The translations under genes and the position numbers were made by a program. The notes beneath the pieces were generated by a model. The model saw nothing but the letters and a program-made list of their open reading frames with translations, was not told the DNA's origin and made no database searches. From Candidatus Coatesbacteria bacterium (GTDB lineage: Bacteria > RBG-13-66-14 > B26-G2 > JAUVZD01): a DNA stretch of 64,000 nucleotides. The stretch lies in NCBI GenBank assembly GCA_030602715.1, contig JAUVZD010000001.1, positions 270,213 to 334,212 on the forward strand, read 5' to 3'. Every line of letters begins with the position of its first letter. Position 1 is the stretch's first letter. Positions 13,341-57,578 of the stretch are shown in pieces.

Positions 13341-13341
13341 A

Positions 13342-15393: not shown

Positions 15394-15470
15394 TCCCCTT
15401 AAAAGGACCATTTCCAATCACTAGAGTTTAACAGTCCTCTACAACTTCATAAATTTAGAAAGGAGAAAAC

Positions 15471-15968: not shown

Positions 15969-15982
15969 TCTCAAAAAAGACC

Positions 15983-16010
15983 GAAAGCCCCCCTTCTTTG
16001 GGGGGCTTTC
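15983..16010 (+). terminator. Rho-independent terminator-like hairpin after paralog 2
   Basis: gaaagcccccc-ttcttt-ggggggctttc, a perfect 11-bp GC-rich stem 15 nt after the stop. Confidence 0.6.
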
Positions 16011-16036
16011 CATTAAAACCGAATAATATAAAAACA

Positions 16037-16065
16037 TTGATTTCATCACTTAATCATATTATTGT
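16037..16065 (+). promoter_or_regulatory. Sigma-70-like promoter TTGATT-17-TATTGT upstream of paralog 3
   Basis: TTGATT 16037-16042, 17-nt spacer, TATTGT 16060-16065. Confidence 0.4.
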
Positions 16066-16107
16066 GCTAAAGCAGGTCAAGAAAATTCCACTTTTAAAGG
16101 ATGGGAT

Positions 16108-16635
16108 ATGAACAAGCTCACAACCTTCATCTCCGCCCTGGTCTTAACCATTATGGTGATAGTCGCAAGCCCACTCAAGGCGTCGGGCGAGGATGGTGGC
16201 AAGAGTCCAGCAGACCAAGCCAGGGAGCATTATGAGGTTCTAACCTCCATCGTTGAAGGAGCCATCGCCGCTCTTGACGGCATGTATGCCCTTGACGAAA
16301 CGTTGGCTGATGGCACCGTTACTTTGGAATCAGCCAGATCCAAAACCATAGAGCTGAAGGAGGAGTTTCTGTCCCGGAGGGCGGAGCTTGATCACATTGA
16401 TGTGCCAGAGGACTTTGTGGAAGTGTTCAACATGTTGCTCAACTGGATGAATCAAGCCGAAAAGACCTTTGACCTTATGCTGGTAACCATTGAGAAAGAG
16501 ACCGCCGAAGCTGAGGAGTTTGATAAAGCCCTGGACGATTTCTACTCCGCCTGGGATTTGGAAATTCAGATGTATGATGAGATGACCGAAGCCTATGTCC
16601 AGCAGATGGTTGAGTTTGGCTTGGACCTCTACTGA
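16108..16635 (+). CDS. Paralogous secreted protein family, member 3 (unknown function)
   Basis: Signal peptide without Cys (SPase I type). REHYEVLTSIVEGAIAALDGMYALDETLADGTVT, VPEDFVEVF, NWMNQAEKTFDLMLVTIEKE, FYSAWD, AYVQQMVEFGLDLY. Closest to member 2. Confidence 0.7.
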   Translation: MNKLTTFISALVLTIMVIVASPLKASGEDGGKSPADQAREHYEVLTSIVEGAIAALDGMYALDETLADGTVTLESARSKTIELKEEFLSRRAELDHIDVPEDFVEVFNMLLNWMNQAEKTFDLMLVTIEKETAEAEEFDKALDDFYSAWDLEIQMYDEMTEAYVQQMVEFGLDLY

Positions 16636-16709
16636 TGACCTTAGTGGACCTCAGCAATGACCCCCCTGAATACAATCTGAAAAAGTATTTTGAAATATGC
16701 AAAAAAATA

Positions 16710-16738
16710 TTGATTAAGCTCCCGAATTGTAGTATTTT
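16710..16738 (+). promoter_or_regulatory. Sigma-70-like promoter TTGATT-17-TATTTT upstream of paralog 4
   Basis: TTGATT 16710-16715, spacer ending in GAATTGTAG, TATTTT 16733-16738. The spacer 3' half (GAATTGTAGTA) recurs in the paralog-5 promoter. Confidence 0.4.
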
Positions 16739-16783
16739 ATTTGCGATCTTTTCAAATTATCCTCATCACAGAAAGGATGCACT

Positions 16784-17371
16784 ATGAAGAAATTTATAAT
16801 TATCTTTTCCGTCCTGCTACTGCTGGTCTCTCTATCGGGCTGTGAGAGGGTCAAGCAGATTTTCGGCAAAGGAGAGATTGAACTTGACCCCGCCACTCAG
16901 GCAGAAGAACATTACAATCAGCTCAAACCACTGGTAGAGAACGCCGGTCAGTGCCTGGACTATCTCTATGAGCTTGACGAACAGCTGAGTGACGGCACAG
17001 TCGCTCTGGACTACGCCCTTCAGCGCACCAATGAGCTGAAACAGAACTACGCCATGCAGAGGGATACCCTCAAAACGGTCAAGGTGCCCGCCGATTTCCA
17101 GAACGAATGGAAGATGACTCAGCAGTGGTTTGACGAAGGATACAGACTATTTGACCTGATGGCAGACACAATCTATAAGGAAAAAGCCGGCGGGGGACCC
17201 CCCTTTGAGAAATCTATGGATGTCTTCTACGCCGCTCAGGACAGAGAGTTTCAATTCTACGAAAATATGACCGCCGCCTATGACGCCAAGATGGAATCGT
17301 ATGGCTTCACAATGGAAGATACACCAGGGGGCGGTGACTTCCCCAAAGCCATACCCAAAGGTGGAAAGTAG
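16784..17371 (+). CDS. Paralogous secreted lipoprotein family, member 4 (unknown function)
   Basis: Lipobox LSGC. EEHYNQLKPLVENAGQCLDYLYELDEQLSDGTVA, VPADFQNEW, QWFDEGYRLFDLMADTI, FYAAQD, AYDAKMESYGF. Gly-rich C-terminal extension. Confidence 0.7.
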   Translation: MKKFIIIFSVLLLLVSLSGCERVKQIFGKGEIELDPATQAEEHYNQLKPLVENAGQCLDYLYELDEQLSDGTVALDYALQRTNELKQNYAMQRDTLKTVKVPADFQNEWKMTQQWFDEGYRLFDLMADTIYKEKAGGGPPFEKSMDVFYAAQDREFQFYENMTAAYDAKMESYGFTMEDTPGGGDFPKAIPKGGK

Positions 17372-17405
17372 TAGAAGAGTAAAAGCGCCCATCAAAGCAA
17401 CCACG

Positions 17406-17428
17406 AGCCCCCTTTCTCGGGGGCTTTC
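17406..17428 (+). terminator. Rho-independent terminator-like hairpin after paralog 4
   Basis: agccccc-tttctc-gggggct followed by ttc; same stem style as the paralog-2 terminator. Confidence 0.55.
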
Positions 17429-17462
17429 TGCGAAGTTCTTCATCCCAATATCGCTAAAAGGA

Positions 17463-17491
17463 TTGATTGGGCGACTGAATTGTAGTAATCT
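17463..17491 (+). promoter_or_regulatory. Sigma-70-like promoter TTGATT-17-TAATCT upstream of paralog 5
   Basis: TTGATT 17463-17468, spacer ending in GAATTGTAG, TAATCT 17486-17491. Confidence 0.4.
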
Positions 17492-17536
17492 ATCTGCACT
17501 CGCTCTTCAGTTGAAAAATAAGGACCGAACGAGCCA

Positions 17537-18061
17537 ATGACGGTCAAAGGTAATAAAAGGAAATTTGTCATCTGCCTGATGTTCCTGGCAGTGGCTTGGG
17601 CTTCATCGGTAAAAGCCCAGGAAGATGATGCGGTGGAGCTGATGGAGCGGATTACCGCCATCGCCACCCACTACGACCAGGTAACCCCCCTGGTGATGGA
17701 CGCTGTGGAGTTGATGGCAGAGTTATATACATATGAGGAACTGCTCCACTCCGACCCTGCCATCGCCGGTCAATCGGTTAAAGAGATTAAGGACCGTTTG
17801 CAAACCCTGACCTCAGAGATTCATACTATAAGCCCGCCCCCGGAGGCTGAGGATACCTTCAACAAACTGCTCCTCTGGTTTGAGAACCTGGAGGAGGTTA
17901 TTGACCTCTTTCTGGTGACCGCCTCGCCAGACTATTCGTCACCTGTGGAGTATCGTCTCTCCGCCTACCGGGAGTCCAAAGCCTGCGAGGCGAAGCTCTT
18001 CACCGAGGCTAAAGATGCGTATATCCAGCTCCTCGGCGATTACGGCATACCACTGGAATAA
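17537..18061 (+). CDS. Paralogous secreted protein family, member 5 (unknown function, most diverged)
   Basis: Signal peptide (FVICLMFLAVAWASSVKA). Family core is recognisable but diverged: THYDQVTPLVMDAVELMAELY, PPEAEDTFNKLLLWFENLEEVIDLFLV, AYIQLLGDYGIPLE. Confidence 0.6.
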   Translation: MTVKGNKRKFVICLMFLAVAWASSVKAQEDDAVELMERITAIATHYDQVTPLVMDAVELMAELYTYEELLHSDPAIAGQSVKEIKDRLQTLTSEIHTISPPPEAEDTFNKLLLWFENLEEVIDLFLVTASPDYSSPVEYRLSAYRESKACEAKLFTEAKDAYIQLLGDYGIPLE

Positions 18062-19952: not shown

Positions 19953-21833
19953 CTAATCCATTATCTCCTTAATCCTGTCGGAGATGCCCACCGCATCAAG
20001 ACCCACCATTTTCAACAGCTCATCCACCTTTCCGTGAGGGATGAACTCATCGGGGATGCCGATGATGTGCACCCTGCATCTGTTCAGCAAGCCCCTCTCC
20101 GCCAGAAGCTCCAGCACCGCCGAGCCGAAACCGGCGGCGGATGTTCCTTCCTCCACGGTTACCAGATGCTCATACTTTCCGGCCAGGTCGGCAATCAGCT
20201 CCTCGTCCAGGGGTTTCACCCAGCGGGCGTTTACCACCGTGGGCTCTATCCCCTCGGAAGCCAACATCTCTACCGCTTCCAGCACAGCACCGACCATCCT
20301 GCCCAGGGCGAGTATGGCAACTCCGCTTCCCTCCCTCAGCACCTCACCTTTTCCTATTGGTGTCGGTTCAGCCTTCCAGTCCACCTCCACACCCTCGCCC
20401 AAGCCGCGGGGATAGCGGATGGCGAAGGGGGTCTTGAAATCGGCGCCGGCGTTGAGCATCGCCACCAGCTCGGCTTCATCCTTCGGCGCCCCCAAAACCA
20501 GATTGGGGATGTGGCGCAGATAGGCAAGGTCAAAAAGACCATGGTGGGTGGGTCCGTCCTCTCCGACCAGACCACCCCGGTCAACCGCCAGGAGCAGGGG
20601 CAGGTTCTGCAAACATATATCGTGGATGAGCATATCATAGGAACGTTGTAAGAAAGTGGAATAGACGGCAAATACGGGGTGATAACCGGCGGCGGACAGA
20701 CCGGCGGAAAAGGTGGTGGCATGCCCCTCGGAGATGCCCACATCGTAGAAGCGGTCGGGGAATCTCTCCCCGAACTGATATGTTCCGGTCCCGTCGGGCA
20801 TGGCTGCGGTTATGACCACCAGTTTGGGGTCCAGCTCCCCCCGCTCCTCCACCCAACGACCGAAAACACTGGTATAGGTCATCCCCTCTATCTTGGGGCA
20901 CTCGCCGGTATTTTGATTGAACTTGCCCAAGCCGTGGAACTTGGTGGCGTCCTGCTCAGCCGGGGTAAATCCCTTCCCCTTCTTGGTAACCACATGGAGC
21001 AAAACCGGACCCTTTAGACCCTTGATGCCCTCCAAAGTGTCCATTAACAAAGGGATATCGTGACCGTCAATGGGTCCCAGATAGCGGTAACCCAGCTCCT
21101 CAAAGAGCACCCCCCGCACCAGCATGTGCTTTAGCCCCTCCTCAAAGCGCCGAGCCAGGTTGAAGAGGGTTCCCCCGTAGGCAGGGATATTCTTGACCAG
21201 CTCCTGCATCTGGGAGCGGAAACGGTCGTAGCCGGGGGTGGTGATCAAACGACCGAGGTAGCGAGCCATTGCTCCGACATTGGGGGAGATAGCCATCTCG
21301 TTGTCGTTCAAGACGACCAGTATATCCTTTCCCAGCTCCCCGCCTCTATCCAGACCCTCCAGCGCTAATCCGCCGGTAAGCGAGCCGTCGCCGATGACCG
21401 CCACCACATGATAGTCCTCACCAGCCAAATCCCGGGCGCAGACACAGCCCAGAGCCGAGGAGATGGAGGTGGAGGCATGTCCCACCCCGAAGGCATCGTG
21501 GACGCTCTCCTCCATACGAGGAAAACCGGATATTCCGCCCAGTTGGCGCAGTGTTGAAAAGCTCTGGCGGCGCCCGGTCAGTATCTTATGGGTATAAGCT
21601 TGATGACCGACATCCCAGATGAGCTTGTCGGTGGGAGAATCAAAGACCCGGTGCAGGGCAATGCCCAGCTCCACAGCACCAAGGCTGGGGGCTAGATGAC
21701 CGCCGGTCTTTGCCACCGTGGTGATGATGAAAGAGCGAAGCTCGGCGGCAAGGCGGGGCAGGTCCTCCGTTTTCAGCGCCTTCAGGTCAGAAGGACCTTC
21801 AATCCGGCTCAACAGGGGGTATTCGCTTCTCAT
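19953..21833 (-). CDS. dxs: 1-deoxy-D-xylulose-5-phosphate synthase
   Basis: GGHLAPSLGAVELGIALH, WDVGHQAYTHKILTGRR, thiamine-diphosphate motif GDGSLTGGLALEGL, transketolase-like C-terminus. Confidence 0.95.
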   Translation of the reverse strand: MRSEYPLLSRIEGPSDLKALKTEDLPRLAAELRSFIITTVAKTGGHLAPSLGAVELGIALHRVFDSPTDKLIWDVGHQAYTHKILTGRRQSFSTLRQLGGISGFPRMEESVHDAFGVGHASTSISSALGCVCARDLAGEDYHVVAVIGDGSLTGGLALEGLDRGGELGKDILVVLNDNEMAISPNVGAMARYLGRLITTPGYDRFRSQMQELVKNIPAYGGTLFNLARRFEEGLKHMLVRGVLFEELGYRYLGPIDGHDIPLLMDTLEGIKGLKGPVLLHVVTKKGKGFTPAEQDATKFHGLGKFNQNTGECPKIEGMTYTSVFGRWVEERGELDPKLVVITAAMPDGTGTYQFGERFPDRFYDVGISEGHATTFSAGLSAAGYHPVFAVYSTFLQRSYDMLIHDICLQNLPLLLAVDRGGLVGEDGPTHHGLFDLAYLRHIPNLVLGAPKDEAELVAMLNAGADFKTPFAIRYPRGLGEGVEVDWKAEPTPIGKGEVLREGSGVAILALGRMVGAVLEAVEMLASEGIEPTVVNARWVKPLDEELIADLAGKYEHLVTVEEGTSAAGFGSAVLELLAERGLLNRCRVHIIGIPDEFIPHGKVDELLKMVGLDAVGISDRIKEIMD

Positions 21834-21960
21834 CGGTTACCTTCCTTAAACAATTGGGATTTCAGCAAGGATTTTTCACCACACGATTTAAATAGACCAA
21901 CCCCCCAAAATTATAGATGTAAATGGGGGGAGATTGGCGAACAAGCAGACATTCAAAAGA

Positions 21961-22827
21961 CTATTCTTCTTCCACCTCACCGCCTTCGGTCTCAATCGGG
22001 GTCTCATCCACGCTGACCTCGCCGCCCTCGGTCTCAATCGGAGTCTCATCCATGCTAAACTCGCCGTGGTAGGGGGTAATGGTATAGACGATGCCCGGCG
22101 TCTTTGCTCCGCCGAATCCGCTTCCCTTCGCCGCCCGCTCCACATGTTCCCGGTCCATTCCCTGCCAGGTCTCCTCGCTTACCCCCTCGGTCTTGCGGAT
22201 TAACATCTCCTGGATGGTGCTGTAGGTCAACTTGGTCCTGTGCGGACCGGTCCAGATTAAGGTGTAGATGGCCCTATGTGGGGTTTCCTCCATTACCCGC
22301 AAAAGCTCACCCGCCTGTTGAACTGAGTCAAATAGATGTCCCTTCTCGCCGAGATGGACCACATGCTCCTCGTTGATGATATAATCCTTGCCCTTATCCT
22401 CCGCCAGCCCGGCGATGTCAAAGATTATAGATTCTCGGAAGCCGGGCTTGGTGATGCGCAGGCGAGCCAGGAGGTGGGAGATGTCCACATCCATCTTTTT
22501 GGCAAACTTTATGTCATCAAAGACATCTATCTGCACCATATCGTATTCAGCATATTTGTCCTTCTCAAAGTAGTCCAGCAGTCGCTGTAGTTCCTCGGCT
22601 TTTGTCCCGGCGGGAACGGAGATGGCCATCCTGATATATCTTATGTCTTTTTTGGCGTCATCGGAGCCGTAGGGATTCTCGGTTTTTATCTGCCCGATGG
22701 CATACTCCACCGGCGGAGAGGTGCTGGTGGTGGTTACACTCCCCTGGTCCTCCCTCCGTCCACAGGACGAAAGCCCAAGTAGTGCGGAAATTATTAAAAT
22801 CACACTCAGACGCACCAACATCTCCAA
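21961..22827 (-). CDS. Hypothetical lipoprotein with C-terminal tandem peptide repeat
   Basis: Lipobox LSSC after a hydrophobic signal; C-terminus carries two copies of DETPIETEGGEV; no catalytic motif recognised. Confidence 0.5.
   Translation of the reverse strand: MEMLVRLSVILIISALLGLSSCGRREDQGSVTTTSTSPPVEYAIGQIKTENPYGSDDAKKDIRYIRMAISVPAGTKAEELQRLLDYFEKDKYAEYDMVQIDVFDDIKFAKKMDVDISHLLARLRITKPGFRESIIFDIAGLAEDKGKDYIINEEHVVHLGEKGHLFDSVQQAGELLRVMEETPHRAIYTLIWTGPHRTKLTYSTIQEMLIRKTEGVSEETWQGMDREHVERAAKGSGFGGAKTPGIVYTITPYHGEFSMDETPIETEGGEVSVDETPIETEGGEVEEE
21976..22059. repeat. Two-copy imperfect 42-bp tandem direct repeat inside the lipoprotein 3' end
   Basis: ..cggtctcaatcggggtctcatccacgctgac.. 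followed by ..cggtctcaatcggagtctcatccatgctaaa..; encodes the duplicated ETPIETEGGEV peptide. Confidence 0.6.
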
Positions 22828-22848
22828 ATCCTCATAGCCAAACCAAAC

Positions 22849-23229
22849 TCAGTTCTTTTTAGCTTGCTCCATAGCGACCAACTTCCTGAGTAGGTCCCTA
22901 TCCCTCTCGGAAACATCCAAGAAGTGGATAGCTATAGCGTATGGCATAGACGAGTCGTGTCCGTCTTCTGCACACCGCACCACTATCCCCTCGCAGATAA
23001 TCTCCTGTGTCTTCCCCTTGGAGGGTTTGGGGAAAGATACCAGCAAGCGCAACTGCACAATGGTAAATACTTCAAAAGGGACCTCACAGTCGCAATATAG
23101 TCCACTCTCGCTGATATTGCGGGTGATTATGGTGTTTTCGGGGACCTTTTTCAACGGCTCGTGCAGTCCCCCACCCAGGCGGGCATCTACTCTGGAAAAT
23201 CTCCTTCTCTCCTTCTGGTTATCACCCAC
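22849..23229 (-). CDS. PilZ-domain protein (putative c-di-GMP receptor)
   Basis: RRFSR (RxxxR) followed by NISESG ((D/N)xSxxG), the two c-di-GMP-binding PilZ motifs at the expected spacing. Start overlaps the upstream gene stop by 8 nt. Confidence 0.65.
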   Translation of the reverse strand: MGDNQKERRRFSRVDARLGGGLHEPLKKVPENTIITRNISESGLYCDCEVPFEVFTIVQLRLLVSFPKPSKGKTQEIICEGIVVRCAEDGHDSSMPYAIAIHFLDVSERDRDLLRKLVAMEQAKKN

Positions 23230-24277
23230 CTATCTTCACCTCCTTGCTAATATCATAATCTGTAATCCGTCCCTCCTCCACCTCTTTACGTTTGGTATAA
23301 TCACTCAGTCTGACATTCCCCACCCACAGGAATATCAACCCCACAAAAATTATAGGTAAAATCTGCATCAAATGCAATATCAAAGCGAAGGAGAGCGCTT
23401 CCCCCATGGTGATAGCCGGGTTGGCGATATTGAGTGAGAAATAGGTGGAAAGCTCAAAGGTTCCGATGTAGCCCGGTGAGGAAGGGATGGCGATGCCCAG
23501 ACAGACCAGAGCCACCAGAAGAAATGAGGTGTATGCGGGAAAGCCAACGGAGAAATTGAAGCCCTGCATCACCAGCCAGGTGGACGTCACCGAACACCCC
23601 CAGACCAACAGGGAGTAATAGACAGCCATTCCCAGATGCCTTCTGTTGCTGAAGACATTGAGCCCGTCGGCGAAGGATACCAAGATACGTCCCACCCGGA
23701 CTGCCAGGCGCATGTTGAAACGAGCCACCGCCCGCTTAATCCATCCGATAGTGCGGTCACTGAAGCGATAGAACATATAGATGAGAGAGGTGAGGACAAT
23801 ATAGCCGACAAAAAGCATAGCTATGACAATCACATTGCCGGATTTTTCCACCCCGATGGCTAACACGGTGCCCAGCCAGATGACCATCAGAGTAAAACCG
23901 TCAAGCAGGCGATTGATAACCGCGCTGGCAATCACCGAAGATTTTTTAATGCGCTCATCCCGAGCCAGCACCAGAGGTCCGATTATCTCCCCCACCCTCG
24001 CCGGCAGGATGCTGTTAGCCATAAAGCCGATCATGGTGGCTTTAAACAAAGGCATGAAGCGAATCCTCTTTATCCGCCTGAGCAGATAACCCCAGCGCTT
24101 TGCCCTGGCCAGAAATCCAGCCATAAAAACCACCACCGCCGGTAATATCCACCAGTAATTTGCGGTGGTGAAAGCCTCACCCGCATTCACCCAGTCCACA
24201 GTTACCACCAGCACCAGTATGGAACCGATGCTGATCAGTATGCCTAGGTAAAATTTTTTGGACCTGAGAAGGGGCAA
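23222..24277 (-). CDS. Flippase-like / lysylphosphatidylglycerol synthase TM-region family membrane protein (UPF0104-like)
   Basis: 351 aa polytopic membrane protein with the R/K-rich loop after TM1 (AKRWGYLLRRIKRIR) and a layout typical of the LPG_synthase_TM family. Family call made by resemblance, not search. Confidence 0.55.
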   Translation of the reverse strand: MPLLRSKKFYLGILISIGSILVLVVTVDWVNAGEAFTTANYWWILPAVVVFMAGFLARAKRWGYLLRRIKRIRFMPLFKATMIGFMANSILPARVGEIIGPLVLARDERIKKSSVIASAVINRLLDGFTLMVIWLGTVLAIGVEKSGNVIVIAMLFVGYIVLTSLIYMFYRFSDRTIGWIKRAVARFNMRLAVRVGRILVSFADGLNVFSNRRHLGMAVYYSLLVWGCSVTSTWLVMQGFNFSVGFPAYTSFLLVALVCLGIAIPSSPGYIGTFELSTYFSLNIANPAITMGEALSFALILHLMQILPIIFVGLIFLWVGNVRLSDYTKRKEVEEGRITDYDISKEVKIGG

Positions 24278-24360
24278 ACGAACCTCTCCGGGATTGCTCC
24301 GATTAATAAAGTATCATAACACAGAGCTACTCAAGATAAAAGTTTTTCCTTTCCAGGCGA

Positions 24361-25254
24361 CTAGTAAAGTATCCAAATGACCGCCAATATCCACAAAACT
24401 ATGGCCGCCATCAAGGGTTTGTCCTTGAGCAGGATACGGCTGGGGGCTCCCCCTTCTTGGCGCACGTAGAGAAGATAGAGATAGCGGAAGATGCCGAAGA
24501 CGACGAAGGGGATGGTATAGACCAGATTAGCGGTAGCCATCTTCTCTATAGTCCGCTCGGAGATGGTGTAGAGGGTATATGACATCACTGTGGATGCGGT
24601 AACCACCGCTATCATACCATCTATAAATTGGGTGGAGTATTCCTTCAGGGCTTTGCGGTGTCTGCCCGCTTTTCCCTCCAGAAGCACAAGCTCGTGCCGC
24701 CTTTTGGCGATTGCCAGGAACAGGGACAGGAAGAAGGTGCATACTAAAAGCCAGGTGGAAAGCTCTACCGTAGGCACCAGTGCCTCCACCCCGGCTATCG
24801 CCCGGAGCACAAAACTTATGGAGATGGTGATAACATCCAGGATGATGACCTTCTTGAGGACCAGCGAATAGGAGATATTGAGGACAAAATATATAACCGC
24901 TACCAACCCAAAGGCGGGGGGCAGAACCAGGAAGGAGGCGCTCAGGCTGACCAGGGTGAGGATAATAAAGACCACGAAAGCCACGACCAGCGGTATCCTC
25001 CCCGAGGGAATGGGACGATGTCTTTTTCGGGGATGCGCCTTATCTGAATCCCTGTCAATAATATCGTTGAAGGTATAGACCGCACCCGAGAGCAGGCAGA
25101 AGACGATGAATCCAAGCACGGCGCTTACCAGATAAGCCCAGTTGAAGATGTTTTTGGAGAAGATGAGTGCGGCGAAGACAACCGCATTCTTGGTCCACTG
25201 GGTAGGACGCACCAGCTCCACAATCCCCTTAACCATAGCCGCTCCGCCTATCAA
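24361..25254 (-). CDS. UbiA-family prenyltransferase, decaprenyl-phosphate phosphoribosyltransferase-like
   Basis: NDIIDRDSDKAHPRKRHRPIPSG is the Asp-rich motif of DPPR-synthase-type UbiA enzymes; about 8 TM helices. ATGA start/stop overlap with the upstream GHL10 gene. Confidence 0.7.
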   Translation of the reverse strand: MIGGAAMVKGIVELVRPTQWTKNAVVFAALIFSKNIFNWAYLVSAVLGFIVFCLLSGAVYTFNDIIDRDSDKAHPRKRHRPIPSGRIPLVVAFVVFIILTLVSLSASFLVLPPAFGLVAVIYFVLNISYSLVLKKVIILDVITISISFVLRAIAGVEALVPTVELSTWLLVCTFFLSLFLAIAKRRHELVLLEGKAGRHRKALKEYSTQFIDGMIAVVTASTVMSYTLYTISERTIEKMATANLVYTIPFVVFGIFRYLYLLYVRQEGGAPSRILLKDKPLMAAIVLWILAVIWILY

Positions 25255-26630
25255 CTCTGAGCCTCCTCCATCTCCTTGCGCAGTATGTTTATCCCCTCTA
25301 TACTGGTCTCTTTCCCGATAAAAACATCGTAACCGCCCTCATCTCCACCGATGAAGACCGGGGCATCGGTCAGCCCCACCATCATCTTGGCGACCATAAT
25401 GGCGTGACGATGGGGCACCGCCTCAACCGCCCGGAGGGAGTAAAGCTTTCCGGTGGAGGTGGAAAGCTCCACCACCGGATAGTAGTATTCTATCGGCACC
25501 TGATAGATGGGTGGGGGAAGGTAGCGGTCAAAGAATTCCTCTCTAAAAAGCTCAAATCGCTTTCCTCCTTCATCAGCCAGCCCACCGTAGGCGAAGACCA
25601 CCACCCCCGGGGATTCCAACTGAATACAGCGTTCCATTCTTTCCACCAACGACTGAGGCGTATCCCACCGCCCCCCACTCCGCTCCAGTATCCCCAACCC
25701 GACCACCACTCTGTTCTTGGGCGCTGCGGACAGGTCAACCTGGGCATATCCGCCCATCACATCTGCGGATTCAGCATAGCACATGGGGATGACAAAATCC
25801 ACCAACTCCTCATCTATCCACAGGGGCCAATCCTGAAAGACCTCCTCCCGTGATGTGCTCAGAGAGCCGAAGACCGCGACGGAGAGGGGAAGACCGGGGC
25901 TTGCCCAATCTATGCCCTGGCGAAGACGCTCTATCAGGTCGGTTATGCAGTCCTGCCGCCACTTGATGAAACCGTCGGGGTTATCCCCGGGACTTGTGTC
26001 GTAAATCTCCCTGAAGCGAGCCACCGAGATGGGACTGTAGCCGAAACCATGCTCATAGCGGATGTAGTCCAGATGGAAGCCGTCCAGGTCATAATTACTG
26101 ATTATGTCCAAAAAGACCCCCGCCAGATACTCATTTACCCCCGGCACCCCGGCATCAAGCCAGTATTGGGAACTCCCGTCCCGGTAGGTGCCGTCTTTTT
26201 TACAGCTCAGCCAATCGGCGGGGTAATGATAATCGTCAAGCGTATCCCCCCTGCCGGTAGCGATATAGACCGTCACCCAGGCGTGCAGGTCCATCCCCAG
26301 ACGATGAGCCTCACGGATAGCCAAATCCAGTGGGTCGTAGTCGTCTCCTCCGCCGGCGATGAAGGAGGAGCGTTTCTCCGGGTTGGTAAAGAGCTCATTG
26401 CTCTTGTTGGGGATGTAGAGGGCGTCGGAGCGATAGCGCACCTCAAGAAAGATGGTATTGAAGTTAGCCGCCCGAATCTGGTGGATGACCTCCACCAAAC
26501 GCTTTGGGGTGGGAAACTCCCAGGCGGGAAGCCAGACCCCGCGCATCTCCCCGATTATCTCCGAGCAAGGTGCCAAGGTAGGCCAGGCAAAAAACAGCAA
26601 TAAGAATACAACTCCTCTAAGTCTCTTCAC
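25251..26630 (-). CDS. Secreted glycoside-hydrolase-like protein (GHL10/YngK-like TIM-barrel), tentative
   Basis: Signal peptide; FNTIFLEVRYRSDALY, LHAWV, GFHLDYIRY resemble the GHL10 family. Call by resemblance only. Confidence 0.45.
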   Translation of the reverse strand: MKRLRGVVFLLLFFAWPTLAPCSEIIGEMRGVWLPAWEFPTPKRLVEVIHQIRAANFNTIFLEVRYRSDALYIPNKSNELFTNPEKRSSFIAGGGDDYDPLDLAIREAHRLGMDLHAWVTVYIATGRGDTLDDYHYPADWLSCKKDGTYRDGSSQYWLDAGVPGVNEYLAGVFLDIISNYDLDGFHLDYIRYEHGFGYSPISVARFREIYDTSPGDNPDGFIKWRQDCITDLIERLRQGIDWASPGLPLSVAVFGSLSTSREEVFQDWPLWIDEELVDFVIPMCYAESADVMGGYAQVDLSAAPKNRVVVGLGILERSGGRWDTPQSLVERMERCIQLESPGVVVFAYGGLADEGGKRFELFREEFFDRYLPPPIYQVPIEYYYPVVELSTSTGKLYSLRAVEAVPHRHAIMVAKMMVGLTDAPVFIGGDEGGYDVFIGKETSIEGINILRKEMEEAQS

Positions 26631-26641
26631 CCCATCCCCCC

Positions 26642-27655
26642 TCAGGTTCTCCTCTGGGGGTCAAATTCACCGTTCAACATCAAATGCCACACCTCATCCA
26701 CCTGTTTGGCAACATCCTGGGTGATAATATCCTTATTACTTTCGTCGCGCACAATGTTCACCCAGAAGCCGGCAAGCCCACATTCGTGAGGTCCACCGGG
26801 GAAGTTACCCTCAAGATAACCGCATAATGCTTCATAGGTTGCCCTGTCCAGCGCCCTGACCACGCTGGTCAGCACATAACCCACCTCCACCCAGTTCTGG
26901 TTGGAGTCGGCTCCCACAGCCACCAACCCGGTCTCCGCAGCCGCCGCCAAAACCCCCTGACTTGCCCCCCCGCAGGGAGCAAATATCACCTGACAGCCCC
27001 CTGCAAACATCTCCAAACCCAGCTCCTTTCCCGCATCCTCGTCTGCGCAGGCGCAGAAGCCGCCGGGAAGGACCTCCGCCCTTAGGGTTAACTCATCGTT
27101 GGAATATTGTAAGCCGTCTATAAAACCCCGCATTATATCCCGGCTGAAGTCGGTGTGGTCTGCGCCGATGAAGCCCACCTCTCCTTTCGCCAGCACATTG
27201 CCCACCACCACCCCACCCAGCACACCGGCGGCATAATTATCAAAGTTATAACTGGCTACATTGGGCAAATCCAGAAGGGAGTCAAAGACCACAAAATTGA
27301 CTTTGGGATGCTTAATTGCCGATTCGCCGACCTTCTGGTGGAGACCTCTGGGAGCTACTATTATCAGTTTTGCCCCCCTCTCAAGGCTAACAGTTATTGC
27401 TTCCTCGGCTTCCTTCCGGGTGGTCGGCTCCAACACATCTATGGTCAGGGCATACTCGTCTATCACCCTCTGGCACCCCACCCAGATGGCGGAGTTGTAG
27501 CTCTTGTCGTCCTTGCTTCCCGGCGCAAGGATTAACACTATCTCACTTTCACCCACCCCCCCCTTTAAGGGTTTTCCGCAGGAGACAAGGGCAGAGACTA
27601 TCGCAGAGGATAGAAGAAGCGTCAGTGCAAAGAGACCTATCCTTCCTTTACACAT
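26642..27655 (-). CDS. BMP-family (PnrA-like) substrate-binding lipoprotein, tentative
   Basis: Lipobox LVSCG. Start set to ATG 27655 (MCKGRIG), 1 nt after the NlpC/P60 stop; the ORF track extends to 27712. Periplasmic-binding-protein-like pattern (IVLILAPGS, GFIGADHTDFS). Confidence 0.45.
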   Translation of the reverse strand: MCKGRIGLFALTLLLSSAIVSALVSCGKPLKGGVGESEIVLILAPGSKDDKSYNSAIWVGCQRVIDEYALTIDVLEPTTRKEAEEAITVSLERGAKLIIVAPRGLHQKVGESAIKHPKVNFVVFDSLLDLPNVASYNFDNYAAGVLGGVVVGNVLAKGEVGFIGADHTDFSRDIMRGFIDGLQYSNDELTLRAEVLPGGFCACADEDAGKELGLEMFAGGCQVIFAPCGGASQGVLAAAAETGLVAVGADSNQNWVEVGYVLTSVVRALDRATYEALCGYLEGNFPGGPHECGLAGFWVNIVRDESNKDIITQDVAKQVDEVWHLMLNGEFDPQRRT

Positions 27656-27656
27656 C

Positions 27657-28640
27657 TTATTGTAAATAGGTTCCAAAGCCATATACCCTGTCTTTCCAGT
27701 AAGGAGCGTCAAATTTGGTGATGGTTACCCCGGCATCGGACGATTCCGCATGTATGAAGCTGTCCCCGCCGATGTAGATGCCCACATGGCTGGGACCGCT
27801 TGAGGTGGTGGAGAAGAAGACCAGATCCCCCGGTCTCAACAGGTCCCGGTTGATGTGGTTAGAGCCATCATACTGGTCATGACAACCCCGCAGAATGGAT
27901 ATTCCCACCTCACTGTAAACCTTCTGCACCAGCCCGGAGCAGTCCATCCCCTCCCGGCTCTGTCCACCATAAACATAGGGCACGCCCAGATAGCTTTTTG
28001 CCGATTCCACAATCTTCGCCCGAATTGTACCCGCAACCGCCCGGTCGTCCTTGACGGTTACATAAGAGGCGAGAATCCATCCCTCGGCGCCGTCGCTGGT
28101 GCGCACCGCAAGCCAGTCATCGGACGAGCCCAGAACCTGAATCTTGGTCCCCCGCTCAAGATAGGCGAGCGGAGCAGAATCCGCCGAGGGGTCGCCCATC
28201 AGGGGGAACTGACTCTGGGAATAATCCCCTTGGTCAGCGGGACTGTCCAGGGCTTCAATCTGCACCCTTATCTGTGAGGGGCTCCCGTCATATTTCTTGC
28301 GGTATATGCGATAGCGCACCTGACCTGAGCAGACCACAGCCAGCCGAGCCACCAGAGGGTTATACTTATACTGCCACAGGTTCAGCTCGGCGACCAGACC
28401 GCCCGACGCCAACTCCGTCACCTCGTCGGAAATAGTGGTGCCCAACATGTCAATATATATCGTGGGCGGGGATTCCTCGGTGCTAACCTTTATCCTCGGG
28501 GGATAAAGCTCGCTGGTGGAAATTACCAGCCAATCCCCCTCCAGGCTCACCCCGGTTATCTCTCCCCCTTCATCGCCTGCGGAGATGCCGACCCAAAGGT
28601 ATATAGAAAATAAAAAAATGGCTGTGAAAGAGATTCGCAA
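27657..28640 (-). CDS. NlpC/P60 (C40) cell-wall peptidase with N-terminal SH3-like domains
   Basis: GVPYVYGGQSREGMDCSGLVQKVY (catalytic Cys), GDLVFF, SHVGIYIGGDSFIHA (catalytic His); signal peptide. Confidence 0.85.
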   Translation of the reverse strand: MRISFTAIFLFSIYLWVGISAGDEGGEITGVSLEGDWLVISTSELYPPRIKVSTEESPPTIYIDMLGTTISDEVTELASGGLVAELNLWQYKYNPLVARLAVVCSGQVRYRIYRKKYDGSPSQIRVQIEALDSPADQGDYSQSQFPLMGDPSADSAPLAYLERGTKIQVLGSSDDWLAVRTSDGAEGWILASYVTVKDDRAVAGTIRAKIVESAKSYLGVPYVYGGQSREGMDCSGLVQKVYSEVGISILRGCHDQYDGSNHINRDLLRPGDLVFFSTTSSGPSHVGIYIGGDSFIHAESSDAGVTITKFDAPYWKDRVYGFGTYLQ

Positions 28641-28761
28641 CTTAAAGCTTTCCCCTCAGATATTTTAGCCATATTACGATTTTTCATATGGCAGGTCAAG
28701 GCTATATGATTTGGAGGTTCTACGCCAGACGGAGCCGATCATTGCGGATTATGTGATGACC

Positions 28762-28790
28762 TTGACACCCACTCAAGCATATGATACTCT
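28762..28790 (+). promoter_or_regulatory. Candidate promoter (TTGACA-17-TACTCT with extended-10 TG) for the 28.8-39.1 kb operon
   Basis: TTGACA 28762-28767; TGATACTCT 28782-28790; first gene starts at 28829 with RBS agaggagg. Confidence 0.35.
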
Positions 28791-28828
28791 TTTTATAAAC
28801 AGTTGAGCAAGAGGAGGAAAATCCGAAT

Positions 28829-30970
28829 ATGAGGCAAAGGTTAATCCCTTTTAAGGAAAAGGGACGTGTTCTCTTAATATCCGGCATAGCTATCATCATC
28901 CTGTTTACGATACTTGCCAACCGAACCTCATTCTGTGCCCAGATGCAAGGGGAACTCCTCTCCCACCTGCCGGACGGCGGATTTCTATACATTGACATCG
29001 TCTCCCTTCCTAAGATGATTATCACCACCCTGGAACAGCCCCACATGATAATACTGCAGGAGGAGAGCGGCGATGAGAGCATCACCGAGTTGATAGACGC
29101 CGCCCTGGACGAAGTCCTCCCCGGGCTTTCTCTGGAGAAGCTATTGCTCCTCTTCCCCGCTGAGTTCTCCTGTGGGGCTTACTACGAAGAAGAGGATTTC
29201 CAATTTATAGTTGCGGTAGATATTGTAAGTGGTGATGAATTCAACCCCCTCCTCAAGCGGTTTCTGGCACTTGGAGAAGAGAAGGGGGGTATCAAAGTAA
29301 AAGAGAAGACCAAAGGTGATTTCCTCTTCTATGAGCTGAAGGGAGATGCAAATGTGGTATATCTTGCCTTTGACGACTCCGTTCTGCTGGTAAGCACAAC
29401 CAAGGAGATGGTTGAAGGAGCGATGAAAAACTTCGCCGAAGCCAAGACCCCCCTAAACGACAATTCCGCCCTGACCAGCGCAAGAGAAAATCTCTCCGAT
29501 GGGGCTGACTATTATCTCCTCTGCGACGGGCAAAAGCTGAGTGAGCTGATATTGGGAAAATTCCCTTCCGAGGAGGAAGGGGGCGAGGTGGAAGAAGCCC
29601 TCCTGTCCGGCCTGACGGAATGGCTGAACACCTTCCTGCAAGACCTGAGATGTATCTCCCTGAGCTTCCGCTTCCCTCCCCAGGAAGCCTCCGCAGTTGA
29701 CCTGCTCACCCCCAGCGACGAGGTTTTCCTCCAGCTCCAGCCCGGCTCGGAAACCGCCGCCCAATTCGGAATGTTGCAGGGGAAAGACCGTCCCAAATGG
29801 ACGCCGCAAGTTGTCCCCGGCGAGACGGTGATGTTATCGTGCAGCACCGGCGAGGAGACTATCACCCCAAAATCCCAAAATTACCTCTCCTATCTCCTCT
29901 CCTTCCTCCCCTTCCCCCGAAGCGAAGCGGAGCTGATGAACGAGGTCCTTGAGCTGCTCCCCACCCCGCCGGAGCTCGCCTTTCTCTCGGATGAGGACCT
30001 GACCGCCGGTCTGGGGCAGGAGACAGCCACCGCCTATATGCCCGGTCCTGACCCATTAAGCTATCTGTTCTCGTTGACCGACAAAGCAGAAGCCAACAGG
30101 TTCTCCCTGCTCCTCTACTCGTTGAAGGAGCCGGGGGACTTTGAAGGGAAGTATCTTGCCCATCTGAACCAGTCGGAACTGGTGGAGGTGGAGACCGTCC
30201 CCTACCTGGGGAAAAATATCTACCACCTGACCCCCACCGAGTCGGCTTATAGGATAAACGAGGAGGCGGTTACCGACTGGATTAACAAGATAATGGGGGA
30301 GATGGGCACAGGCCTCTTTGAGAGGGACGAATGGGACGTGTCGGAGAAGGAGTTCGGCTGGAATATATATGGACAAATAAGTGAGCTGTTCCCCATCATG
30401 GAATCCTATGTCTTCTTCCTCTCGGACTTTATGGTTATAGCCTACGACCCCGATGTCGCCCAGAAGACCATCGCCCACTACATGGAAGGCGATGTCCTGG
30501 CTCAGAACCCCCAGTTTCAGAGATACCTGGCTCATGTTGATGAGGATAACTATTCCCTCTTCTATGTCTCCACCTTCTTCCCCCCAGAGCGCTACGACCT
30601 TCCCGACGACGAAGACCTGGAACAGATGACCACCATGAAAGAAAAACAGACCAAGCCGATAGATGACGACGGTGATGAGGCGCCCTTCACCGAAGGCTAT
30701 CAGTTTTCCTATCAACACCAGCCGACTGAGCTCACCGAAATATGGCAGATGTATTCCGGTGAAGGCTTCATCATCAGCACCACTCTGGGAGCAAACTCTC
30801 TAAAGATAGAGGGTTACCCCAAAGCCTTTGAGAAGCTCTTCATGTCCATCCTCCTCTCAGCCTTCTTCGCCGTCTCTGAGCTGGACGCTTTTGAGTTTGA
30901 CATTGAAGAGAGCGAGGAATATGTCATTGAAGATGAACTCCCTCCAACAAATCCCCTCCACGAAGAATAG
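28829..30970 (+). CDS. Hypothetical membrane-anchored acidic protein (first gene of operon)
   Basis: 713 aa; single N-terminal TM (VLLISGIAIIILFTILA); very acidic C-terminal third; no catalytic motif recognised. Confidence 0.5.
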   Translation: MRQRLIPFKEKGRVLLISGIAIIILFTILANRTSFCAQMQGELLSHLPDGGFLYIDIVSLPKMIITTLEQPHMIILQEESGDESITELIDAALDEVLPGLSLEKLLLLFPAEFSCGAYYEEEDFQFIVAVDIVSGDEFNPLLKRFLALGEEKGGIKVKEKTKGDFLFYELKGDANVVYLAFDDSVLLVSTTKEMVEGAMKNFAEAKTPLNDNSALTSARENLSDGADYYLLCDGQKLSELILGKFPSEEEGGEVEEALLSGLTEWLNTFLQDLRCISLSFRFPPQEASAVDLLTPSDEVFLQLQPGSETAAQFGMLQGKDRPKWTPQVVPGETVMLSCSTGEETITPKSQNYLSYLLSFLPFPRSEAELMNEVLELLPTPPELAFLSDEDLTAGLGQETATAYMPGPDPLSYLFSLTDKAEANRFSLLLYSLKEPGDFEGKYLAHLNQSELVEVETVPYLGKNIYHLTPTESAYRINEEAVTDWINKIMGEMGTGLFERDEWDVSEKEFGWNIYGQISELFPIMESYVFFLSDFMVIAYDPDVAQKTIAHYMEGDVLAQNPQFQRYLAHVDEDNYSLFYVSTFFPPERYDLPDDEDLEQMTTMKEKQTKPIDDDGDEAPFTEGYQFSYQHQPTELTEIWQMYSGEGFIISTTLGANSLKIEGYPKAFEKLFMSILLSAFFAVSELDAFEFDIEESEEYVIEDELPPTNPLHEE

Positions 30971-31381
30971 ATGAGAGGAATCGCTAAAAAGATGAAGAGT
31001 GCTATAATAATAATCTTCTCCCTCCTGCTGGTTCCCGCAACCATCTGGGGACAGGAGATGGTGATAGATACATTTTACGCTTATCCCAATCCCTTCTCCT
31101 GCGAAGACATCCTGAATATAGTGCTGAAATTCACCGGTCAGCCCCACACAGTTTCTGCAACCCTGCAGGTATTTGACCAGGTTGGTGACCTGGTAACCAC
31201 AATAGCCGAGGACCGGCAGGTTACTTCCAATACAAAAGTAAGAATCACCTGGGATGGATTGGACGAGAACGGCGAACGACCCAATCCGGGGGGCTACTTC
31301 ATCCGACTGCAAATGGAAGCTGACACCGGGGAGAGGATAAGTGAGATCTACAAGGTGGTATATTTAGAGGTCAGCAAATGA
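30971..31381 (+). CDS. Small secreted protein consisting only of a FlgD-Ig-like / T9SS C-terminal-sorting-domain-like module
   Basis: Signal peptide, then YAYPNPFS..VLKF.....VSATLQVFDQVGDLVTTI......VRITWDGLDENGERPNPGGYFIRL, matching the YPNPF...vyD..G..V...W.G.d..G....sGvYfyrL pattern of Por_Secre_tail/FlgD Ig-like domains. Starts 1 nt after the upstream stop. Confidence 0.65.
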   Translation: MRGIAKKMKSAIIIIFSLLLVPATIWGQEMVIDTFYAYPNPFSCEDILNIVLKFTGQPHTVSATLQVFDQVGDLVTTIAEDRQVTSNTKVRITWDGLDENGERPNPGGYFIRLQMEADTGERISEIYKVVYLEVSK

Positions 31382-33063: not shown

Positions 33064-34656
33064 ATGGCGGAGCCGAAAAATACAATCGCTTTGGTGAACG
33101 AGAAAGATAAGCCCAAAGAACGCTATATTTCTCTACGCTTACAGATTGCCGCCGCAACCGTCTTGCTAATAGTGGCGACAACCATCACTCTGGGCACTTT
33201 CTCCCTGCGCCATGAACGCCAAGCACTCCACCGCGAGTTCATCGCCCGCATTCTTGCCCAGACCCGCTCAGTGGCGGGGACCAGCTCCGGCTCCATTCTG
33301 CTGGATATAGCGGAAACATATACCCAGCCCCTTGCCCTCAGTACTCTGGAGGAGAACGAGGATTGCATTGATATCACCATCGTGAACAAGGAGAATATTA
33401 TCTACGGGGCAAAAGAGACTTTTCTTCTGGGCAAACCCTACCAACCGGAGCAGGACCTGGCTGCTATTGGGGGGGATTTCGGACAACTCAGCGGTGAGAC
33501 CGTCGCCGAGAAAGGAGACCTGATATATATCAGTGTCCCCATAAGAAAGGGGGAGATGGGAACGATAGGTTACGTCTATGCTTCCTACAGCAGTGCCAAC
33601 CTAACCCATATGCTCACCCTGGCCCGAAACAACCTGATAATTATCTCCCTGATCGTCCTGGTGGTGGGAATATTCGCCGCTTATTTTGTCTCCATGATGC
33701 TGGTAAGTCCGGTGCGCAAGCTGGCAAATGCCGCCCGCCAGGTGGGGATGGGAAACTTTGATGTTACCGTGGAGGCAAAAACACGCAACGAACTGGGGCA
33801 GTTAGCGAACACCTTCAACCGTATGGCAGAGAGTCTGAAAGAAGCCCAGAAGATGATTTTGGAGAAGAACCGCATGGAGCAGGAGCTGACCATCGCCCGC
33901 CAACTGCAGAAGAGCTTCCTGCCCAGCATATTCCCCCACTTGCAGGGGGTGGATATCTATGCCCGTTGCCGCACCGCTCAGGCGGTAGGCGGAGACTACT
34001 ACGATTTCCTGGAGCTGGATGAGGACAACATCGGGCTATTGATAGCGGATATCTCCGGCAAGGGTTTATCCGGTCTCATAATCATGAGCATGGTGCGCAA
34101 TGTTCTCCGCTCGCAAGCCCGCAGGTATCAGTCGCCACGTCGGGCGTTGATAGAGACCAACACCCTGCTCACCCCGGACTTTCAAAAGGGGCGCTTCGTC
34201 ACCGCCTTCCTGGGGACCTACCACCGCCCCACCCGACTGCTCACCTACGCCAATGCCGGACACACTCCCCTGCTCTACTACCGTGCCGATGACAACATCG
34301 TTGCCATGCTGGAGAAATCGGGGCGACCTATAGGTCTCTTCTCCAGCGAGGTCTTTGAAGAGCGCCTGGAGGAAGGACAGCTGGAGCTTTCGGAGAACGA
34401 CCTCATCTTACTCTTCACCGACGGGATAACCGAGGCGATTAACAACGCCGGTCAACTATACGGCGAAAGCCGTCTATTGAAGCTCATCCCCCACCTCAAG
34501 GACCTTGATGCAAAAAGCATAGTGGAGGAGGTCTTCAACAATGTACACCGCTTCCGGGGCAAAGGCGGCACCTTAAGCGACGACATAACTATTATGGTTA
34601 TGAGAACCACAGCCCAAAGTGAGCTGGAAAAGCTCTATACAGCCCAGGAGATATAA
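33064..34656 (+). CDS. Membrane sensor PP2C phosphatase (two TM + periplasmic domain + HAMP + SpoIIE/RsbU-type PP2C)
   Basis: TM1 AAATVLLIVATTITLGTF, TM2 LIIISLIVLVVGIFAAYFV; HAMP (SPVRKLANAARQVGMGNFDVTVEAKTRNELGQLANTFNRMAESL); PP2C motifs VGGDYYDF, LLIADISGKGLSG, FTDGITEA. Confidence 0.85.
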   Translation: MAEPKNTIALVNEKDKPKERYISLRLQIAAATVLLIVATTITLGTFSLRHERQALHREFIARILAQTRSVAGTSSGSILLDIAETYTQPLALSTLEENEDCIDITIVNKENIIYGAKETFLLGKPYQPEQDLAAIGGDFGQLSGETVAEKGDLIYISVPIRKGEMGTIGYVYASYSSANLTHMLTLARNNLIIISLIVLVVGIFAAYFVSMMLVSPVRKLANAARQVGMGNFDVTVEAKTRNELGQLANTFNRMAESLKEAQKMILEKNRMEQELTIARQLQKSFLPSIFPHLQGVDIYARCRTAQAVGGDYYDFLELDEDNIGLLIADISGKGLSGLIIMSMVRNVLRSQARRYQSPRRALIETNTLLTPDFQKGRFVTAFLGTYHRPTRLLTYANAGHTPLLYYRADDNIVAMLEKSGRPIGLFSSEVFEERLEEGQLELSENDLILLFTDGITEAINNAGQLYGESRLLKLIPHLKDLDAKSIVEEVFNNVHRFRGKGGTLSDDITIMVMRTTAQSELEKLYTAQEI

Positions 34657-34680
34657 AAGCATATGCGGAGGATATAGTAA

Positions 34681-35148: not shown

Positions 35149-35156
35149 GAGGAATA

Positions 35157-54443: not shown

Positions 54444-54543
54444 GGACTGTAACCTTTAGCAACCAGTAATAACTTGATTTTTTCACCGCACTGTGGTAAG
54501 ATATTGAGTTGAAAAATAGATTTCAGTTGGAGGTTTCTGAGGA

Positions 54544-55194: not shown

Positions 55195-55209
55195 CACCTT
55201 CATTCTACC

Positions 55210-57573: not shown

Positions 57574-57578
57574 TAGAA

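Follow-up and report, generated by a model that had tools for sequence, protein, structure and literature searches.

In several bacterial envelope machines, such as those relying on the PilZ domain of BcsA or on the Alg44-Alg8 pair, a receptor for cyclic diguanosine monophosphate (c-di-GMP) is genetically tied to an export component of the inner membrane, and the Pel system comprises the receptor PelD, the transporter-like protein PelG and the lipoprotein PelC. Other envelope systems rely on lipid-linked pentofuranose donors; there, three components occur together, namely a polyprenyl phosphoribose synthase (PPPRS), a flippase and a GT-C transferase, as in Citrobacter youngae O1/O2 with the PPPRS ORF15, the MATE flippase ORF14 and the GT-C protein ORF12 (PMC11127046). 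Here, we analysed a stretch of 64,000 nucleotides from a Candidatus Coatesbacteria genome (contig JAUVZD010000001.1, positions 270,213 to 334,212), referred to below as the window, in which a PilZ gene is placed between the genes of a flippase-like membrane protein of the PF03706 family and of a novel lipoprotein, downstream of a UbiA-family gene predicted to encode a PPPRS. The reading that we favour, tentatively and at somewhat less than an even chance, is that this trio constitutes a c-di-GMP-responsive module translocating a lipid-linked head group, with its cargo provided by the adjacent PPPRS.

By analogy, the arrangement would work both like the PilZ-gated envelope machines and like the lipid-linked pentofuranose donor systems, and it is a member of neither, because neither a synthase nor a polymerase is among its partners and because the phosphatase and GT-C features of the donor systems are missing from the 64-kb window. 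The likeness to BcsA and Alg44-Alg8 would lie in the genetic association of a c-di-GMP receptor with an inner-membrane export component, to which Pel, by an analogy drawn from general knowledge, would add the lipoprotein. In these machines the partner is a GT2 synthase or a PST/MATE protein; in the window it is a PF03706 protein, the PilZ protein is a separate one, and no polymerase belongs to the module. As in the three-component pentofuranose systems (PMC11127046), a gene for a UbiA-family PPPRS is followed by a candidate flippase gene, but this candidate is of the PF03706 family and not of the MATE or SMR/GtrA type, the HAD, PAP2 or PHP phosphatase, the GT-C transferase and the epimerase are absent from the window, and the genes of a PilZ protein and of a novel lipoprotein come in addition. 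The mycobacterial decaprenyl-phosphoarabinose pathway offers a further parallel, in that the UbiA protein is homologous over its full length to Rv3806c, whereas counterparts of Rv3807c, DprE1/E2, Rv3789 and Emb/Aft do not lie nearby and the host is diderm (Omp85, a TonB-dependent receptor barrel and Poly_export are encoded in the window) and not an actinobacterium.

The conserved unit of the region is the trio, and not the four genes (those of a GHL10-like hydrolase, the UbiA protein, the flippase-like protein and the PilZ protein) that an initial annotation of this DNA had treated as one set to be found together in related genomes. The same flippase-PilZ-lipoprotein order was observed in four lineages, and the percentages given for them here are the lowest and highest identities between their proteins and those of the window among the genes that were compared. 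Lineage A (the window, L008 and L014; 94-99%) carries the full run of genes as in the window, and lineage B (L005, L006, L010, L015 and L016; 53-78%) keeps the whole neighbourhood of about 15 kb, with synteny extending from the genes divergent of NlpC/P60 through that of the NAD kinase and including an array of paralogous small proteins. Lineage C (L001 and L002; 36-52%) presents the order flippase-PilZ-lipoprotein-TlyA-NadK, with no GHL10, UbiA or Dxs gene. In lineage D (L013, L017 and L018; 38-51%), the trio is flanked upstream only by opposite-strand open reading frames (ORFs) and downstream by unrelated genes. The trio proteins themselves are 36-52% identical to those of the window across lineages C and D. 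Lineage D takes in a Candidatus Coatesbacteria genome (L013) and a Coatesbacteria-like contig (L017); the housekeeping proteins TlyA and NadK of lineage C are 46-49% identical to those of the window, with a GC content of 38% in lineage C versus 53% in the window. Since lineages C and D keep the trio with neither GHL10 nor UbiA in the 5-6 kb upstream of it, as seen in L001 and L017, the expected co-occurrence of the four genes does not hold in these more distant relatives.

A side feature of lineage C is the presence, directly upstream of the trio and on the same strand (L001, 5388-6492), of genes for a Robl_LC7 protein and an Arf-like small GTPase, which we read as a putative MglB/MglA-like pair.

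The junctions inside the trio are tight. In the window, the start of the PilZ gene overlaps the stop of the flippase-like gene by 8 nt (GTGGGTGA), with a strong AAGGAGGTG located 7 nt upstream of the PilZ GTG start; reading of the sequence thus bears out the overlap proposed by the initial annotation, and the two genes may be translationally coupled. The 8-nt overlap is common to lineages A and B, and gaps of 12-24 nt and 15 nt occur at this place in lineages C and D, respectively. The PilZ and lipoprotein genes overlap by 4 nt in lineages B and D and are separated by 3 nt in lineage C and by 21 nt in lineage A. At six more distant PF03706 homologues, with at most 37% identity, no PilZ neighbour was found. 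The absence of PilZ beside these distant genes indicates a specific, co-inherited pairing, and the earlier proposal that the PilZ and flippase genes belong together is supported by their constant order in the four lineages and by the overlap kept in two of them.

The PilZ protein aligns with positions 1-101 of the 102 positions of the PF07238 profile, with a score above the cut-off, and carries both motifs of c-di-GMP binding that had been recognised previously, RxxxR as R9-R13 (RRFSR) and [DN]xSxxG as N38-G43 (NISESG). The homologue search returned five relatives, and the residues R9, R10, R13, N38, S40 and G43 are invariant across six PilZ homologues; the protein of the lineage D genome L013 keeps the two motifs as RRFKR and DISQGG. 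Furthermore, the profile of the family matches the c-di-GMP-binding PilZ protein YpfA/MotI (5VX6). From these sequence features we infer that the protein binds c-di-GMP. It has no transmembrane or hydrophobic segment, which indicates a cytoplasmic location.

As had been noted before, the window offers a candidate enzyme for c-di-GMP degradation and none for its synthesis. An HD-GYP-type ORF (35157-37160, plus strand) with the domain order STAS-GAF-HD_5 (PF13487) is situated 11.9 kb away from the start of the PilZ gene. The scanned ORFs (60 selected ORFs of at least 80 aa, minus ribosomal L27) gave no GGDEF match, and a six-frame scan of the window for G[GAS][DE]EF was equally empty. An Rfam search of the window gave no family, not even with the threshold relaxed to E <= 1 for the interval 21700-28900, and hence no c-di-GMP riboswitch.

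The HD-GYP-type ORF is the last of three consecutive plus-strand genes (33064-37160) encoding a Cache-HAMP-SpoIIE phosphatase, an anti-sigma-type kinase with HATPase_c_2 and the STAS-GAF-HD-GYP protein. These genes form a partner-switching module whose STAS output domain is carried on one polypeptide with a c-di-GMP phosphodiesterase. The first two of these genes are syntenic in lineage B.

It could be argued that the PilZ protein is merely co-located with its neighbours, a membrane protein and a lipoprotein of an ordinary kind, and that it either serves an unrelated target, for instance in motility or transcription, or has lost c-di-GMP binding. Action in trans on a distant target is common among single-domain PilZ proteins (MapZ, HapZ and MotI, for instance), and the lack of a cyclase in the window is in line with this explanation. 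Such an explanation is nevertheless very unlikely, since the order of the trio is kept across four lineages despite changing flanks, the overlapping stop and start persist in two of them, the binding motifs are invariant and the distant PF03706 genes have no PilZ gene beside them.

The third protein of the trio belongs to a family confined to this group, with four relatives found by homologue search and eight representatives among 1.84 billion clusters in an exhaustive profile search. A 42-nt tandem repeat (2.2 copies, 21974-22066, minus strand) is located at the 3' end of its gene and encodes ETPIETEGGEVSVD. The length of the lipoprotein is 274, 288 or 300 aa among relatives that are 97-98% identical, and these differences suggest that the copy number of the repeat varies.

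The flippase-like protein is matched by PF03706 over its full length. Its AlphaFold2 model, built on 61 sequences, is confident, with a predicted local distance difference test (pLDDT) value of 88.3, and the top five matches of this model in a Foldseek search of the PDB are all MprF chains (probability 1.00, TMq 0.51-0.57); three of these five have E <= 0.001, and no other match reaches that level. The sequence itself gave no match against the PDB, so that the relation to MprF is visible by fold search alone. The protein thus resembles MprF by its PF03706 domain and by its fold, but it is 351 aa long, versus about 800-830 aa for MprF, and lacks the C-terminal synthase domain: PF03706 is its only domain, and no aminoacyl-phosphatidylglycerol synthase domain was found in it or nearby. 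Each of the 63 PF03706 homologues retrieved also consists of PF03706 alone, including no fusion with PilZ, and only three of them exceed 40% identity; together with the few relatives of the PilZ protein and of the lipoprotein, this shows that the lineage is sparsely sampled. Lys and Arg are abundant in the N-terminus, in the loop that follows the second helix and in the charged C-terminal tail, which, by the positive-inside rule, suggests an N-in/C-in topology with surfaces available for docking on the cytoplasmic side.

The start codon of the flippase-like gene in the window is TTG. In lineage B, the first transmembrane helix is encoded in frame with no ATG, GTG or TTG ahead of it (L005 8884-9067; also L010 and L016), and gene callers consequently shorten the protein to 296-313 aa; a CTG aligns there with the TTG start of the window.

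The UbiA protein is a credible polyprenyl-phosphate 5-phosphoribosyltransferase, as judged from its sequence. It passes the NCBIfam equivalog NF008977, decaprenyl-phosphate phosphoribosyltransferase, with 296.4 bits for a cut-off of 234, as well as NF008978 (218.9 bits, cut-off 207), and it aligns over its full length with Rv3806c (8J8J, E 2.1e-38). The residues engaged by Rv3806c in the binding of phosphoribosyl pyrophosphate, Mg and the lipid phosphate, 13 in number, have been named (PMC10994848), and we compared them through the HMMER alignment to 8J8J. Eleven are identical in the UbiA protein (R22, K28, Y70, N73, D77, K87, R90, Y138, K143, K191 and K208), and the two others are conservatively changed, Q135N and Y157F, the latter change being found in some mycobacteria (PMC10994848). 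The protein, with a length of 291-297 aa, has no extra domain. The initial assignment to the type of decaprenyl-phosphate phosphoribosyltransferases is therefore upheld both by the equivalog and by the kept substrate-binding residues.

The surroundings of related synthases provide independent information on the possible link between UbiA and the flippase-like protein. The UbiA protein of the window was searched against annotated plasmids and megaplasmids, giving 100 records, and 17 contexts were read. A small flippase candidate is encoded near the synthase in 11 of these 17 PPPRS clusters, usually just downstream. Annotated GtrA genes occur in the Rhizobium, Cereibacter and Lactococcus records, and a GtrA-like ORF was recognised by eye in an unannotated Prevotella record; EamA candidates occur in the clusters of Roseomonas, Vibrio and Marivivens. 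In four Natrialbaceae records (Natronococcus twice, Haloterrigena and Halostagnicola), this place is taken by a PF03706 protein, in the order PPPRS, PHP phosphoesterase and PF03706 protein, the last assignment being confirmed with our own PF03706 profile search (E 1e-24 to 1e-28). Alongside, these megaplasmid clusters encode a GT39 and/or DolP-Man GT-C transferase and an NAD epimerase. Such contexts agree with the three-component scheme (PMC11127046). PilZ was found in none of the 17 clusters.

The Natrialbaceae synthases are the closest relatives of the UbiA protein in the plasmid collection, with 40-42% identity. As in the window, the PPPRS is paired with a PF03706 protein encoded on the same strand; on the other hand, these clusters are archaeal, have the phosphatase gene between the two genes and a GT-C transferase, and lack both PilZ and the lipoprotein. 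They are annotated, with no characterisation found in the literature searched, and by their gene content they resemble a pentofuranose glycosylation system, in this case an archaeal one whose flippase candidate is the PF03706 protein. Since the pairing of PPPRS and PF03706 recurs independently in another domain of life, a chance adjacency in the window is unlikely, and the link from UbiA to the flippase-like protein, already suspected in the initial annotation, becomes plausible.

Several observations weigh against including UbiA in the picture, or against the favoured reading as a whole. Only in lineages A and B do the UbiA and GHL10 genes adjoin the trio; about 15 kb are syntenic there, so that this adjacency counts as one evolutionary observation; at the loci of lineages C and D, neither was found by phmmer with all window proteins, 5-7 kb being visible upstream. 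The similarity between the PF03706 proteins of the haloarchaea and that of the window is only remote (phmmer E 3.6e-4). No 5'-phosphatase of the HAD, PAP2 or PHP type was found in the scanned ORFs, and the GT-C transferases and epimerases of PPPRS systems were not found in the 64-kb window, though a GT-C could be encoded elsewhere in the genome. A diguanylate cyclase is likewise not visible in the 64 kb. Finally, stand-alone PF03706 proteins ('flippase-like', UPF0104) are very widespread and, to our knowledge, none has a proven function or a demonstrated activity.

The spacer between the UbiA and flippase-like genes also deserves attention. In the window it holds a -10-like element 44 nt ahead of the flippase start. 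This element reads TGTTATGAT in lineage A and TGTTAATAT in lineage B, and the pattern TGnTAnnAT is kept between the two lineages in a spacer that has otherwise diverged. It may represent an internal promoter; the sigma-70 scan, in which a -35 hexamer is required, did not list it.

These data bring in the main rival of the favoured reading, namely that the trio is a c-di-GMP-responsive module acting on an MprF-style phospholipid or on some other lipid unrelated to UbiA, the adjacency of UbiA being a lineage-specific accident. The occurrence of the trio with no UbiA or GHL10 gene nearby in lineages C and D agrees with it, as does the conserved element in the spacer, which suggests separate transcription. 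Moreover, the PF03706 domains of MprF, the sole characterised ones, flip aminoacyl-phospholipids, and it is MprF structures that were matched here. Yet a PPPRS is unlikely to lie by chance next to one of the few PF03706 genes of a genome, the same pairing recurs independently in Natrialbaceae, and an aminoacyl-phosphatidylglycerol synthase domain occurs neither in the flippase-like protein nor nearby. On balance, we consider an unrelated lipid rather unlikely as the cargo.

According to the favoured reading, the region would consist of two units joined by the spacer of 83 nt, the downstream one (24277-21961) being the trio. The PF03706 protein would move a lipid-linked head group across the inner membrane, and the PilZ protein, once loaded with c-di-GMP, would dock on the Arg/Lys-rich cytoplasmic loops or on the C-terminal tail of the flippase and thereby switch translocation. 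The lipoprotein would receive or handle the cargo on the periplasmic side. Since the trio stands directly behind the PPPRS in this genome and in its closer relatives, the cargo would most likely be the product of the neighbouring UbiA enzyme, that is, polyprenyl-phosphate-linked ribofuranose or its 5-phosphate. The most specific version of this scheme, in which PilZ with c-di-GMP directly gates an MprF-type flipping of polyprenyl-phosphate ribofuranose and the lipoprotein is a dedicated periplasmic acceptor, appears unlikely as a whole.

The arrangement suggests, short of proof, that a lipid-flipping step of envelope building is under the control of a second messenger. In the literature searched, we found no paper joining PilZ with PF03706 or with lysyl-phosphatidylglycerol synthase, nor one joining MprF or PF03706 with PPPRS. 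If PilZ does gate the flippase, the control of envelope glycans by c-di-GMP would reach a new step, donor translocation, and this would be the first case of second-messenger control at the flipping step instead of at polymer synthesis. It would also assign a first function to a stand-alone PF03706 protein and, with ribofuranose as the cargo, place the known pairing of a lipid-linked pentofuranose donor with a flippase under c-di-GMP control. Two independent genomic associations, with a PPPRS in this lineage and in haloarchaea and with a PilZ receptor, provide testable hypotheses for the stand-alone PF03706 proteins. Being based on gene order and limited to an uncultivated lineage, the finding has, for now, the value of a lead rather than of a result.

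The GHL10-like hydrolase requires a separate discussion, because it had been assigned to the same pathway. Its closest solved relative, by sequence match to the PDB, is the Clostridioides difficile peptidoglycan hydrolase Cwp19 (5OQ2, E 6.8e-22); E. coli DigH/YddW is another GHL10 peptidoglycan hydrolase. The window protein shares PF02638 with Cwp19 and has one N-terminal hydrophobic, signal-like segment, but it lacks cell-wall-binding repeats, and its gene stands between that of the Bmp lipoprotein and UbiA. Only lineages A and B have it beside the trio, and it occurs in none of the 17 PPPRS clusters. The model of the initial annotation, in which GHL10, UbiA, the flippase-like protein and PilZ form one c-di-GMP-gated lipid-linked glycan pathway with GHL10 acting on the periplasmic product, can draw on the co-directional, tightly spaced arrangement of the four genes, on the distance of 14 nt or less between GHL10 and UbiA in lineages A and B, and on the presence of all four in lineage B at 53-78% identity. 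However, lineage B shares the entire neighbourhood, including dxs, tlyA and nadK, which reflects general synteny; GHL10 is not found beside the trio in lineages C and D; its closest solved relative is a peptidoglycan hydrolase; and its gene follows that of an NlpC/P60 endopeptidase. We therefore regard the four-gene pathway as improbable. More probably, GHL10 stands outside the pathway and forms a cell-wall hydrolase set together with the NlpC/P60 and Bmp genes that precede it.

All four minus-strand ORFs described initially are present (Table 1), and Pfam matched PF02638, PF01040, PF03706 and PF07238 in them, as anticipated. They are part of a longer, tightly spaced minus-strand run that comprises NlpC/P60-SH3, Bmp, GHL10, UbiA, the flippase-like protein, PilZ, the lipoprotein, Dxs, a TlyA-like methyltransferase and NAD kinase, and which spans 28640 (NlpC/P60) to 18144 (NAD kinase). 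The NlpC/P60 gene opening this run is syntenic in lineages A and B only, and the stop of the Bmp gene lies 11 nt ahead of the GHL10 start. The overlapping or near-overlapping character attributed to all junctions of the four genes applies to flippase/PilZ and to GHL10/UbiA, but not to UbiA/flippase, where the gap of 83 nt makes one of the three junctions an exception. The GHL10 and UbiA genes overlap by 4 nt if the TTG at 25254 is the UbiA start and are 14 nt apart with the ATG at 25236; the latter is likely the true start, its equivalent being the one at which the UbiA relatives begin. A scan for promoters and terminators gave counts that do not exceed those of shuffled sequences (10 versus 7.0 +/- 2.7 and 9 versus 8.8, respectively) and hence no statistical support for operon boundaries.

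Table 1. Coordinates of the genes and elements around the trio and of the haloarchaeal clusters used for comparison.
Feature	Record	Position	Strand	Evidence or remark
NlpC/P60 endopeptidase with SH3 domain	window	27657..28640	-	Pfam PF00877 E 1.4e-30, PF08239
Bmp/PnrA-like substrate-binding lipoprotein	window	26642..27712	-	Pfam PF02608 E 5e-36
GHL10 TIM-barrel hydrolase-like protein	window	25251..26630	-	PF02638 E 4.6e-39, 134.8 bits (cut-off 27.9)
UbiA-family predicted PPPRS, Rv3806c-like	window	24361..25254	-	PF01040 E 4.1e-25; NF008977
Extended -10-like element TGTTATGAT	window	24313..24321	-	in the 83-nt UbiA-flippase spacer
PF03706 (LPG_synthase_TM, MprF-flippase-like) polytopic membrane protein, 351 aa	window	23222..24277	-	PF03706 E 1.7e-45
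Single-domain PilZ protein, 126 aa	window	22849..23229	-	PF07238 E 9.4e-12, 45.6 bits (cut-off 22.5)
Novel lipoprotein, 288 aa	window	21961..22827	-	lipobox LSSC; third gene of the trio
Natrialbaceae PPPRS cluster	L025	3954-11177		
Natrialbaceae PPPRS cluster	L035	1691-8609		
Natrialbaceae PPPRS cluster	L036	2978-8547		
Natrialbaceae PPPRS cluster	L027			

Other genes of the window complete the picture of its surroundings. An ORF of 867 aa (10776-13379, minus strand), with a single hydrophobic segment and no Pfam match, is the only large unassigned one and sits between the genes of a sugar-phosphate nucleotidyltransferase and an asparagine synthase. Weak to clear Por_Secre_tail signals, the C-terminal signals of type IX secretion, were detected in the window (30971-31381, plus strand), in L001 (2565-5282) and in L005 (20004-20393), and they are compatible with a secretion system like that of the Fibrobacterota-Chlorobiota-Bacteroidota (FCB) group in the lineage. 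An envelope polysaccharide set (53715-58547) encodes a small GT2 protein, a Wza-like Poly_export/SLBB protein, a tyrosine-kinase-like Wzz-GNVR-AAA_31 protein and an NAD epimerase; together with Omp85 (61776-63119) and a TonB-dependent receptor-like barrel (7217-8821), it indicates a diderm envelope. Finally, five tandem genes (14875-18061, plus strand) encode paralogous small proteins of 165-195 aa with signal-like N-termini and no Pfam match, which are about 20% identical to each other and share the invariant residues H39, Y40 and W111; this array is kept in lineages A and B.

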